The notes below the pieces were generated by a model. That model made no database searches. It was not told the origin of the DNA and saw only the letters and a list, made by a program, of their open reading frames with translations. Positions 1,009-41,309 of a stretch of 42,179 nt of DNA are shown piece by piece. The stretch covers positions 1 to 42,179 of the IMG/VR virus record IMGVR_UViG_2778261252_000010. One strand, 5' to 3'. Each line of letters starts with the position of its first letter. The first letter of the stretch is position 1. Origin of the DNA: a virus (Duplodnaviria; Heunggongvirae; Uroviricota; Caudoviricetes). A program made the position numbers and the translations under genes.

Positions 1009-1083
1009 GTCCTCTTAGTTAAATGGATATAACGAGCCCCTCCTAAGGGCTAATTGCAGGTTCGATTCCTGCAGGGGACACCA
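1009..1083 (+). tRNA. argW: tRNA-Arg (anticodon CCU)
   Basis: 75 nt folding as a cloverleaf: acceptor GTCCTCT/AGGGGAC, anticodon stem AGCCC/GGGCT with loop CTCCTAA (anticodon CCT), T-arm GCAGG-TTCGATT-CCTGC, 3' ACCA. Confidence 0.85.
1069..1083. repeat. attL core: 15-bp CTGCAGGGGACACCA at the tRNA 3' end, repeated at 40854..40868
   Basis: Exact 15-bp direct repeat at both prophage borders; the left copy is the 3' terminus of argW. Confidence 0.7.
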
Positions 1084-1199
1084 TTTATCAGTTCGCTCCC
1101 ATCCGTACTAGTCCGCAAAATCCCCTGCATATCAAGCCTTCCGTAGATTCACAGTTCGGCATGGTTCGCGTCAGATCGTTGACAGCCGCACACCATGAC

Positions 1200-1244
1200 G
1201 GGTAAAAAGTGGATAAAATAATTTTACCCACCGGATTTTTACCC
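1200..1244. promoter_or_regulatory. Cluster of GGGTAAAA-type repeats in both orientations directly upstream of intS (putative integrase/excisionase binding sites overlapping the intS promoter)
   Basis: GGGTAAAAA, GGATAAAAT, TTTTACCC and TTTTTACCC within 45 bp ending at the intS ATG; the same motif recurs at the torI end (40775..40795). Confidence 0.4.
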
Positions 1245-2399
1245 ATGCTCACCGTTAAGCAGATTGAAGCAGCAAAGCCGAAAGAAAAACCATACCGCCT
1301 TCTCGATGGTAATGGCCTGTACCTTTATGTCCCTGTGTCAGGGAAAAAGGTATGGCAGCTTCGCTACAAGATTGACGGTAAGGAGAAAATCCTGACCGTA
1401 GGAAAATATCCGCTAATGACTTTGCAGGAGGCAAGAGATAAAGCATGGACCGCGAGGAAAGACATCTCGGTTGGCATCGATCCGGTAAAAGCGAAAAAGG
1501 CTTCGTCTAACAACAATTCCTTTAGTGCAATTTACAAGGAATGGTACGAGCACAAGAAGCAAGTATGGTCAGTAGGCTATGCAACTGAGCTTGCCAAAAT
1601 GTTTGATGACGACATTTTACCCATCATCGGCGGTCTTGAGATTCAGGATATTGAGCCGATGCAACTGCTGGAAGTAATCCGCAGATTTGAAGATCGCGGT
1701 GCAATGGAACGAGCCAACAAAGCCCGCAGAAGATGCGGCGAGGTTTTCCGTTACGCTATTGTCACCGGAAGGGCTAAATATAACCCGGCACCTGACCTTG
1801 CAGACGCCATGAAAGGATACCGCAAGAAGAACTTCCCGTTTCTTCCAGCAGACCAGATCCCTGCATTCAACAAAGCACTGGCAACATTTTCAGGAAGTAT
1901 CGTATCGCTCATTGCGACCAAAGTTTTACGCTACACAGCCCTAAGAACGAAAGAGCTTCGCTCCATGCAATGGAAGAACGTCGATTTTGAAAACAGGATT
2001 ATCACCATCGACGCCAGTGTGATGAAGGGACGCAAAATTCATGTGGTCCCGATGTCAGACCAGGTGGTTGAACTTCTCACTACGCTAAGCTCAATCACTA
2101 AACCAGTATCAGAGTATGTTTTTGCCGGGCGCAACGATAAGAAGAAGCCAATTTGCGAGAACGCTGTACTACTTGTGATCAAACAAATCGGATATGAGGG
2201 TCTGGAAAGCGGACACGGATTCAGGCATGAATTCAGCACGATTATGAACGAGCACGAATGGCCTGCTGACGCGATTGAGGTTCAACTGGCGCATGCCAAC
2301 GGTGGATCTGTGCGCGGGATTTACAACCATGCTCAGTATCTGGATAAGCGCAGAGAAATGATGCAGTGGTGGGCTGATTTCATTGACGGAAAAGCATGA
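1245..2399 (+). CDS. intS: Tyrosine recombinase / prophage integrase (P4-like family)
   Basis: ORF next to the tRNA; N-terminus MLTVKQIEAAKP typical of P4-family integrases; C-terminal catalytic region with R..H..R..Y-type residues; start taken at the second Met (1245) of the 1209..2399 ORF. Confidence 0.8.
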   Translation: MLTVKQIEAAKPKEKPYRLLDGNGLYLYVPVSGKKVWQLRYKIDGKEKILTVGKYPLMTLQEARDKAWTARKDISVGIDPVKAKKASSNNNSFSAIYKEWYEHKKQVWSVGYATELAKMFDDDILPIIGGLEIQDIEPMQLLEVIRRFEDRGAMERANKARRRCGEVFRYAIVTGRAKYNPAPDLADAMKGYRKKNFPFLPADQIPAFNKALATFSGSIVSLIATKVLRYTALRTKELRSMQWKNVDFENRIITIDASVMKGRKIHVVPMSDQVVELLTTLSSITKPVSEYVFAGRNDKKKPICENAVLLVIKQIGYEGLESGHGFRHEFSTIMNEHEWPADAIEVQLAHANGGSVRGIYNHAQYLDKRREMMQWWADFIDGKA

Positions 2400-40286: not shown

Positions 40287-40313
40287 CCTCGCATTCGCGG
40301 GGATTTCTTTTAT
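40287..40313 (+). terminator. Intrinsic terminator (same hairpin as at 22671..22686)
   Basis: CCTCGCATTCGCGGGG hairpin followed by ATTTCTTTTAT. Confidence 0.5.
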
Positions 40314-40354
40314 CTGAACTCACTACGGCGAGTTTTGTTTTATGGAGATGATAA

Positions 40355-40522
40355 ATGCACTTCCGAGTCACAGGTGAATGGAATGGAGAGCCATTCGACA
40401 GGGTTATCGAAGCAGAGGACATCAACGACTGCTATAACCACTGGATGATATGGGCGCAGATAGCACATGCAGACGTAACCAATATTCGAATTGAAGAACT
40501 GAAAGAACACCAATCCGCCTGA
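40355..40522 (+). CDS. Small hypothetical protein (55 aa)
   Basis: Below the ORF-track cutoff; GGAGA ribosome-binding site; stop codon sits inside the following terminator hairpin. Confidence 0.5.
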   Translation: MHFRVTGEWNGEPFDRVIEAEDINDCYNHWMIWAQIAHADVTNIRIEELKEHQSA

Positions 40523-40536
40523 TGGCGGTTTTTTAT
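40515..40536 (+). terminator. Intrinsic terminator
   Basis: CCGCC-tgat-GGCGG hairpin followed by TTTTTTATT. Confidence 0.65.
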
Positions 40537-40544
40537 TACCTGAT

Positions 40545-40560
40545 TTGCAGGTTCGATTCC
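40545..40560. repeat. 16-bp TTGCAGGTTCGATTCC, an exact copy of the argW T-arm segment at 1054..1069
   Basis: Exact 16-bp match to the part of the tRNA just 5' of the att core; lies 19 bp upstream of torI. Confidence 0.7.
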
Positions 40561-40579
40561 CTATTCGGAGATAGCACTC

Positions 40580-40780
40580 ATGCAACACGAACTACAGCCT
40601 GATTCACTGGTTGATTTGAAATTCATCATGGCCGATACTGGCTTCGGTAAAACCTTCATCTATGACCGGATTAAGTCCGGGGACCTGCCTAAAGCCAAAG
40701 TTATCCACGGGCGAGCAAGATGGTTATATCGTGACCATTGTGAATTCAAAAATAAGCTCTTAAGCCGCGCCAATGGGTAA
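40580..40780 (+). CDS. torI: Excisionase / recombination directionality factor TorI
   Basis: 66 aa (MQHELQPDSLVDLKFIMADTGFGKTFIYDRI...), matches KplE1 TorI as remembered; winged-helix Xis/AlpA-like; sits at the prophage end opposite intS. Confidence 0.8.
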   Translation: MQHELQPDSLVDLKFIMADTGFGKTFIYDRIKSGDLPKAKVIHGRARWLYRDHCEFKNKLLSRANG

Positions 40781-40795
40781 AATAGCGGGTAAAAT
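40775..40795 (+). promoter_or_regulatory. Two direct GGGTAAAAT repeats overlapping the torI stop (putative recombination-protein binding sites in the attR arm)
   Basis: GGGTAAAAT at 40775 and 40787, 12 bp apart; same motif as the cluster upstream of intS. Confidence 0.4.
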
Positions 40796-40853
40796 TTTAT
40801 TCACATCTAAAAAACACCATTCCAATCAATCCCCTGCCGATTCAAGTAGATGT

Positions 40854-40868
40854 CTGCAGGGGACACCA
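40854..40868. repeat. attR core CTGCAGGGGACACCA
   Basis: Exact copy of the 15 nt at the argW 3' end (1069..1083). Confidence 0.7.
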
Positions 40869-41309
40869 GATACCCTTCAAACGAAATCTACCTTCACCCC
40901 GTAAAAGATGGGTTTGGCAGCACACTTGCCTTATATCTACTCATTTTTACTGCAACAGGTTGAAATCTCAGCACTGTCAGAAAGCGCTGATGACTAAACA
41001 GCCCTGGGCCGGGCGATGTAACCATCACACAGAATCCTGATAGCGAAATATGGCGTGACTCGATACTTCACTCCGCAATGCATTCCTTGATGAATTCGCA
41101 GGACCGTGATACACGGGACAGGTCACTGAATGACGACAATGTCCTGGAAATCAGCGAACCGCGCATCTGAAGTACATTTGAGCGACTGTACCAGAACATG
41201 AATGAGGCGTTTGGATTAGGCGATTATTAGCAGGGCTAAGCATTTTACTATTATTATTTTCCGGTTGAGGGATATAGAGCTATCGACAACAACCGGAAAA
41301 AGTTTACGT

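Follow-up and report, generated by a model that had tools for sequence, protein, structure and literature searches.

A block identical to the argW T-arm is a conserved cis element, and a putative operator, in the torI leader of a P22-like prophage

Background

The closest described relatives of the locus analysed here are the IntS-TorI integration modules of KplE1 (CPS-53), a defective prophage of Escherichia coli K-12, and of the phages HK620, Sf6, CUS-3 and Kapi1. In the KplE1-type module, torI and intS flank attP and are found at opposite ends of the prophage after integration (PMC2951348). The duplicated core of KplE1 is CTGCAGGGGACACCAT (PMC2951348). The att site is shared by Kapi1, in which the duplication measures 17 bp (PMC8787464). 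TorI, the recombination directionality factor (RDF) or excisionase, has 8-nt sites centred on GTTCG, GTCCG or GATCG and represses intS through the sites nearest the -35; the TAAA-containing arm-type sites of IntS are defined in the same work (PMC2951348). Excision in vitro is efficient with a 135-bp attR for which the primer, CTCTTAAGCCGCGCCAATGG, lies at the 3' end of torI (PMC3509656). RDF expression is considered by the KplE1 authors to be the main, still unexplained control point of excision.

Binding sites were reportedly mapped by Panis 2007 (JBC), and Menouni 2013 (PNAS) is said to deal with Rho and torI. Small DNA-binding RDFs that, like TorI, have sites in both att and a control region include Apl of phage 186, Cox of P2 and HP1 and Vis of P4. 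These proteins have extra operators at lysis-lysogeny promoters, at which binding has been demonstrated (see also the discussion in PMC2951348).

Results and discussion

Organization of the locus and borders of the prophage

The window (the whole 42,179-nt stretch of viral DNA analysed here, IMG/VR record IMGVR_UViG_2778261252_000010) holds a ~39.8-kb P22-like prophage in argW, integrated through the known KplE1/HK620/Sf6-type module torI - attP - intS (Table 1). The gene order is that of the KplE1, HK620, Sf6, CUS-3 and Kapi1 modules, and the same 16-nt block, identical to part of the argW T-arm, precedes torI. The core is likewise the same 15-16-nt sequence at the argW 3' end, the attL has the same TorI (GTTCG) and arm-type (TAAA) motifs as the KplE1/HK620-type module, and nothing essential differs here. 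The architecture is that of a known module; its torI leader holds a conserved cis element, the block. Earlier annotations call the block an 'att core' (CUS-3) or a 'pI/cII' site (HK620, Sf6).

Table 1. Features at the two ends of the argW prophage (positions are those of the window)
Feature	Position	Strand	Evidence or remark
argW, tRNA-Arg(CCT)	1009-1083	+	ARAGORN; only tRNA reported; same tRNA in empty site
attL core CTGCAGGGGACACCA	1069-1083	+	15-nt direct repeat of the prophage
P' arm of attL, overlapping the intS promoter	1084-1244	+	Motif scan
intS-type tyrosine integrase gene	1245-2399	+	98% identity (375/383) to HK620 Int
Small early-left ORF, last gene before the integration module	40355-40522	+	Common to HK022/lambda-type phages
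Intrinsic terminator CCGCC-TGAT-GGCGG plus T run	40515-40535 (stem 40515-40528)	+	tL4 in HK022 annotation
16-nt T-arm-identical block TTGCAGGTTCGATTCC	40545-40560	+	Pattern search, sequence reading
Cross-genus conserved part of the block, CAGGTTCGATTCC	40548-40560	+	Lineage comparison
torI Shine-Dalgarno GGAG	40567-40570	+	6 nt past the block; kept in alignment
torI, recombination directionality factor (excisionase), 66 codons	40580-40780	+	100% identity to K-12 TorI
Two IntS arm-type-like sites, GGGTAAAA x2	40775-40794	+	attR P arm; overlap the torI stop codon
attR core region: C half-site AAGTAGATGTC, overlap TGCAGGG, then GACACCA	40843-40868	+	
attR copy of the 15-nt repeat CTGCAGGGGACACCA	40854-40868	+	Host DNA from 40869

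The integrase gene lies immediately downstream of argW and reads away from the tRNA. Phage DNA restores the argW 3' end, and the T-arm segment TTGCAGGTTCGATTCC occupies 1054-1069. At the other end, torI (a name also carried by the RefSeq matches) is the last gene of the prophage and adjoins attR. One prophage-free E. coli genome reads ...TTGCAGGTTCGATTCCTGCAGGGGACACCA|GATACCCTTCAAACG..., where the sequence to the right of the bar is that of the window from 40869 onward. Comparison with this empty argW site shows the tRNA joined directly to the 40869 sequence, with neither torI nor a separate copy of the 16-nt block. Because the empty site makes this direct join, the prophage extends between the two cores, at 1069-1083 and 40854-40868, and this 15-nt sequence is the att core, where recombination is predicted to occur. 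The 7-bp overlap is predicted to be TGCAGGG (1070-1076 in attL), with a length supported by the inverted repeat G(A/G)TGTC that surrounds it. The repeat is 15 nt long here rather than 16 or 17 because the host base past ACCA is a G.

TorI-type motifs (GTTCG, GTCCG or GATCG) start at 1091, 1111, 1154, 1164 and 1174 in attL, and putative IntS arm-type sites of the form GG(G/A)TAAAA are found at 1200 and 1211 on the plus strand and at 1229 and 1244 on the minus strand (motif scan on sequence only). The T-loop of argW itself contains a GTTCG (window 1060) on the same strand as the five attL motifs, at distances of 31, 51, 94, 104 and 114 nt from them. These distances are near whole helical turns, so the argW T-loop could be a sixth putative TorI site, or the phasing could be due to chance. 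At the right end, a small ORF homologous to HK620 hkaB and Sf6 gene 17 (window 40773-40900) starts in the torI stop region. This ORF crosses the att core, and its C-terminus therefore differs between free phage and prophage.

The two repeats of the tRNA 3' end

The first-pass annotation had described the tRNA 3' end as reappearing at the right border in two blocks split by torI. Sequence reading and pattern search bear this out: TTGCAGGTTCGATTCC is found only at 1054-1069 and 40545-40560, and CTGCAGGGGACACCA only at 1069-1083 and 40854-40868. No further copies of either block are present in the window when up to two mismatches are allowed, and no additional box copies beyond chance were found elsewhere in the prophage. 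Together the two blocks cover 30 contiguous bases of the tRNA, within which they share one C; their right-hand copies lie 293 bases apart with torI between them. The strong terminator said to precede the first block is also there, as a hairpin followed by a T run.

Shuffled sequences gave a mean of 0.03 and 0.06 matches for the two blocks, and none reached 2. The number of 16-mer matches expected by chance is ~0.001 (our own estimate for a 75-nt tRNA against 2 x 42 kb). The 16-nt match is thus beyond chance, as had been claimed, and a chance match is ruled out by the shuffles.

The block is phage DNA and not an attachment boundary

Two histories had been put forward for the split repeat, namely two successive integrations at argW that left a nested boundary, or the insertion of torI into one longer tRNA-derived segment of attP. 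Neither is upheld. BLAST of window positions 40300-40900 against phage records showed an uninterrupted run of block, torI and core in the genomes of free phages (N7, HF4s, Kapi1, HK620 and Sf6). The K-12 defective prophage KplE1, with which comparison had been suggested, also carries the block before torI, and related prophages share the same architecture. As the free phages carry the block and the empty argW site does not, the block travels with the phage. A nested boundary is contradicted both by this contiguity and by the absence of block and torI from the empty site. The right end was likewise judged to hold no second integrase or further element: there is one integrase, and the borders are fixed by the empty site and the free phages.

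The other history, a tRNA-derived segment split by torI, was examined through the C half-site, taken as the 16 bases left of TGCAGGG in 33 distinct attP/attR sequences. The bases at this position have the half-site consensus A(T/G)T(C/A)GATGT(A/C), and they share TTCGAT with the tRNA half-site GGTTCGATTCC at an equal distance from the overlap. Since attP already has its own T-loop-like half-site at the crossover, the upstream block is an extra copy and not a missing left half. An insertion of torI that split one segment was rejected on the same ground, as the T-loop-like C half-site adjoins the overlap in attP.

Three further routes were considered: an aberrant excision event, integration at a secondary site (the second TGCAGG within the T-stem), and insertion into the att site of another element. 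None yields the observed order. In each of them the T-arm piece ends up beside intS or downstream of torI, and in no case before that gene.

It is extremely unlikely that the block is itself the real crossover or a second one, with torI and the 15-nt block as the remnant of an earlier occupant of argW. Such a boundary would agree with the direct and exact nature of the repeat and with the CUS-3 record (CP000711.1), which names exactly this 16-mer 'attL core' and 'attR core'. It conflicts with the single stretch of block, torI and core in free phages and with the lack of torI at the empty site. In UTI89 and other genomes the prophage continues past the end of the CUS-3 record into torI and then dsdC. 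KplE1 recombination in vitro uses the 16-nt core, and a crossover at the block would not restore argW. As the 135-bp attR begins at the torI 3' end, a substrate that lacks the block still recombines (PMC3509656).

The block also lies close to the edge of the module. Similarity between the window and K-12 KplE1 begins at 40530, 15 nt before the block, and HK022 and lambda-type similarity ends at 40537 (BLAST query 1-238). Three unrelated contexts occur upstream among 80 IMG/VR loci with identical TorI. One has an ea8.5-like ORF and a GCCGCC terminator, one is another region with a CCGCAT/ATGCGG terminator, and the third is the decayed K-12 version. These three contexts, with two different terminators, meet at the T run just before ...ATT(G/A)CCTGATTTGCAGGTTCGATTCCCTATTCGGAGATAGCACTCATG. 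The convergence of the contexts and the end of HK022/lambda similarity at 40537 together put the block 7-15 nt inside the left edge of the module. By this sequence comparison, the left edge of the torI-attP-intS module is placed at about 40530-40538. The early-left region meets the recombination genes here, at a mosaic junction that is already known. The block falls within the Sf6 boundary sequence bsq2 and is itself 7-15 nt from the early-left/integration junction. Boundary sequences of lambdoid and P22-like phages are, however, defined by their position between modules, and not by identity with a host tRNA or by conservation across genera as is the block here.

The CUS-3 record is delimited on the block

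The CUS-3 GenBank record took the block for the att core. CP000711.1 begins and ends with the 16-mer TTGCAGGTTCGATTCC, tagged 'attL core' and 'attR core' (L001, 1746-1761; L004, 1-16). In UTI89, IHE3034, NU14 and other genomes the prophage is 100% identical to the last 1761 nt of CP000711.1. In UTI89 (L160, 2661-2881), torI begins 20 nt past the last base of CP000711.1, and dsdC comes next. Because these identical prophages run on into torI and the true attR, CP000711.1 is truncated and is without the excisionase gene and the real right end. The 16-nt repeat is thus a trap in prophage boundary calling, and the CUS-3 reference was delimited on it. The same error can recur in automated att-site prediction that seeks the longest direct repeat with a tRNA.

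Conservation of the T-loop box

Lineages were collected from a one-genome-per-species scan and from IMG/VR scans with divergent TorI homologues. The core of the box, CAGGTTCGATTNCC, sits 4-12 nt before the GGAG ribosome-binding site of the excisionase gene. Its cross-genus form is CAGGTTCGATT(C/T/A)CC, which is found in Escherichia, Citrobacter-type, Serratia, Pantoea, Edwardsiella and Erwinia-type lineages and in further IMG/VR lineages. When 14 lineages were aligned with MAFFT, GTTCGATT and the next CC proved invariant and the neighbouring intergenic bases variable; as the 14 lineages were chosen for having the motif, the invariance within it is partly by construction, which does not apply to the contrast with the flanks. 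Within E. coli-type loci, the torI leader is nearly invariant save for a TTGC/TTAC polymorphism and so gives no information on constraint. A tRNA match of 16 nt, reached through the added TTG, is specific to the E. coli phage lineage. The Serratia box, CCAGGTTCGATTCCTGA, matches the tRNA for two bases further in the 3' direction. The box is kept in Pantoea (L096) and is also present in Edwardsiella and in Pantoea stewartii. A divergent Edwardsiella-type tRNA at attL (L179), the one other host tRNA compared, has the same T-arm as argW.

Some lineages have two copies. Erwinia phage Midgardsormr38 (L006, 2484-2516) and L126, L127 and L129 carry a tandem box, AGGTTCGATTCCC gtc AGGTTCGATTCCC, with the copies 16 nt apart, and L123 has two GTTCGATT(C/A)CC copies 13 nt apart. 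Other lineages have none: the box is absent before close TorI homologues in Dryocola, Tatumella, several Pantoea prophages and Klebsiella phages. In Dryocola sp. BD626 (L095, about 2470-2500) the leader reads ATTGCCTG|GAGG, in which TTTTTTATTGCCTG is followed directly by GAGGAAAGCATG. This is a clean 24-nt absence, of the stretch ATTTGCAGGTTCGATTCCCTATTC that holds the box in E. coli phages. Judged from these leaders, the box is evidently dispensable, as relatives with close TorI homologues do without it.

A functionless relic, that is, a piece of the argW T-arm caught at the module edge by an old aberrant or secondary-site recombination and since hitch-hiking with torI, could account for several of these observations. 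A mosaic junction is only 7-15 nt away from the block, the extra tRNA bases differ by lineage (5' TTG in E. coli, 3' TG in Serratia and Pantoea L096), and the block is absent in some relatives and decayed in L114. This reading is nevertheless improbable. GTTCGATT is invariant across genera while the adjacent intergenic bases are randomised, the position beside the ribosome-binding site is kept, and no simple site-specific or aberrant-excision route was found that would place a T-arm piece upstream of torI.

Several side observations were made in the same comparison. The attP core of Klebsiella phage vB_Kpn_Chronis (L007, 2763-2785), ATGCAGGGGACACTTG, is without the CCA end of the E. coli-type attP, so that the tRNA gene would no longer encode CCA after integration. 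The excisionase gene of this phage overlaps an upstream traR-like gene and has no T-loop box. At the attR of Escherichia sp. E1V33 (L090) the repeat ends earlier than in E. coli, with CTGCAGGGGACA followed by atcctacc, which suggests a different flank or a possibly decayed tRNA 3' end. Finally, two short contigs, from a MAG labelled Actinomycetes (L092) and a MAG labelled Parachlamydiaceae (L106), carry an enterobacterial-type torI module with the box and an argW-type core; these modules are most likely binning contaminants.

Proposed function of the block

The position of the block, directly after a terminator and before torI, had led to the idea that it might be part of the torI promoter. 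No sigma-70-like promoter was found between the terminator and torI in a promoter scan, so this part of the idea is not borne out; a regulatory role is still likely. Of the earlier interpretation as a whole, what stands is that the block is non-random, tRNA-related and located in the upstream control region of torI rather than at the crossover. Both integration or insertion histories are dropped.

A promoter function has also been annotated in relatives. In AF335538 (HK620) a 'cII protein' site and a 'phage integration' promoter cover the block sequence, as does 'pI' in AF547987 (Sf6), and TTGC-N-TTGC repeats overlie the start of the block. A cII-activated promoter of the pI type, driving transcription towards attP and int during lysogenisation, is nonetheless very unlikely. 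The repeats are spaced 5 nt apart, TTGCCTGATTTGC, whereas the spacing in the lambda cII consensus is 6 nt. In place of the first TTGC, the window, K-12 and 22 of 56 E. coli-type loci have TTAC, and the repeat is missing in other genera that keep the block. The promoter scan found no -10/-35 pair, and such a promoter would express the excisionase during integration. In addition, intS has its own mapped promoter (PMC2951348).

Another reading is an effect at the RNA level. The T-loop-like sequence in the leader would tune the translation of torI or the stability of its mRNA, either as an anti-Shine-Dalgarno element or as a processing signal resembling a tRNA. Pairing is possible between GGAG and the UUCC of the block, the spacer between Shine-Dalgarno and ATG is paired with the block in minimum free energy folds of the Citrobacter-type, L124, L128 and L148 leaders, and the Edwardsiella and Serratia versions are able to form a T-arm-like hairpin. 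The E. coli version forms only two of the five T-arm stem pairs, however, and the RNAalifold consensus is -0.52 kcal/mol with compensatory changes at 0 of 7 predicted pairs. Rfam gave no meaningful match for the block region. A conserved RNA structure or anti-Shine-Dalgarno hairpin, although possible in some lineages, was rejected as there is neither consensus nor covariation, and control at the RNA level is accordingly given a quite low probability.

On balance, the block is probably a conserved cis element of the torI leader and a putative operator at which IntS and/or TorI would control torI, rather than an att boundary. A full-text literature search for the block sequence gave no match, and the T-loop box is apparently undescribed as a cis element. 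The block duplicates exactly the left (T-loop) half-site of attB, a sequence that the integrase has to recognize at the crossover, and has no overlap or partner half-site beside it. Compared with the B and C core half-sites of lambda Int-type systems, it is alike in its identity to the left half-site of attB and in TTCGAT, which the C half-sites also contain. It differs from them in being isolated, ~300 bp from the crossover and outside the 135-bp attR that is sufficient for excision. As the whole conserved stretch corresponds to the left half-site of attB, and TTCGAT recurs in the C half-sites, the core-binding domain of IntS is the one protein expected to read it in full. The shared TTCGAT suggests that this may be what IntS recognizes. 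Because the box accompanies torI and intS on different phage backbones, its partner would be expected to come from either the module or the host.

The mechanism envisaged would run as follows. Transcription from the early-left operon would otherwise reach torI by read-through of the terminator at 40515-40535. IntS, through its core-binding domain, would bind the block (the favoured case), with TorI as an alternative or a partner. The recombination proteins of the module, once on the block, would then feed back on torI expression. The candidate site is unlike the operators of Apl, Cox and Vis in that it lies in the leader of the RDF gene itself, is predicted from sequence and is accompanied by no promoter that could be found.

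TorI alone could also be the partner. The block contains the TorI-type motif GTTCG (40551-40555) in the same orientation as the five attL motifs, within flanking bases that differ from those of TorI sites I1-I5. As an extra GTTCG site before torI it would serve negative autoregulation, with the tRNA likeness beyond GTTCG an inherited accident. This would parallel the repression of intS by TorI through I4 and I5, and both the site definition and the repressor activity are published (PMC2951348). The direct-repeat duplication in Erwinia-type phages and in L123 would fit an RDF that binds arrays, and the variant CAGTTCGA in L124 resembles site I1. An operator for TorI only is still rather unlikely. 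The conserved part runs 6 nt past what the attL TorI sites share, and most lineages have a single site.

Some observations count against an operator for either protein, among them the dispensability of the box in the relatives named above. The 3' part of the box, ATTNCC, is not common to the known TorI sites. Tandem copies are 16 or 13 nt apart and thus out of helical phase, in contrast to the 10 or 20 nt of TorI arrays. Binding of Int proteins to core-type half-sites in isolation is usually weak, and a DNA-bound protein is a poor block to antiterminated transcription.

A more specific version of the operator proposal is possible but tentative. The T-loop box would be a decoy or operator copy of the attB half-site by which the integrase, possibly together with TorI, senses its own concentration and gates the excisionase.

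Conclusions

If the box is only a relic, the finding is an ordinary one. As an element identical to an attB half-site and placed before torI, it is a concrete and cheaply testable candidate for torI control. If the decoy version is true, the protein-DNA recognition that chooses the tRNA target would also control the excision switch. This would then answer the question raised for KplE1 of how the RDF is controlled when int and xis are transcriptionally uncoupled.
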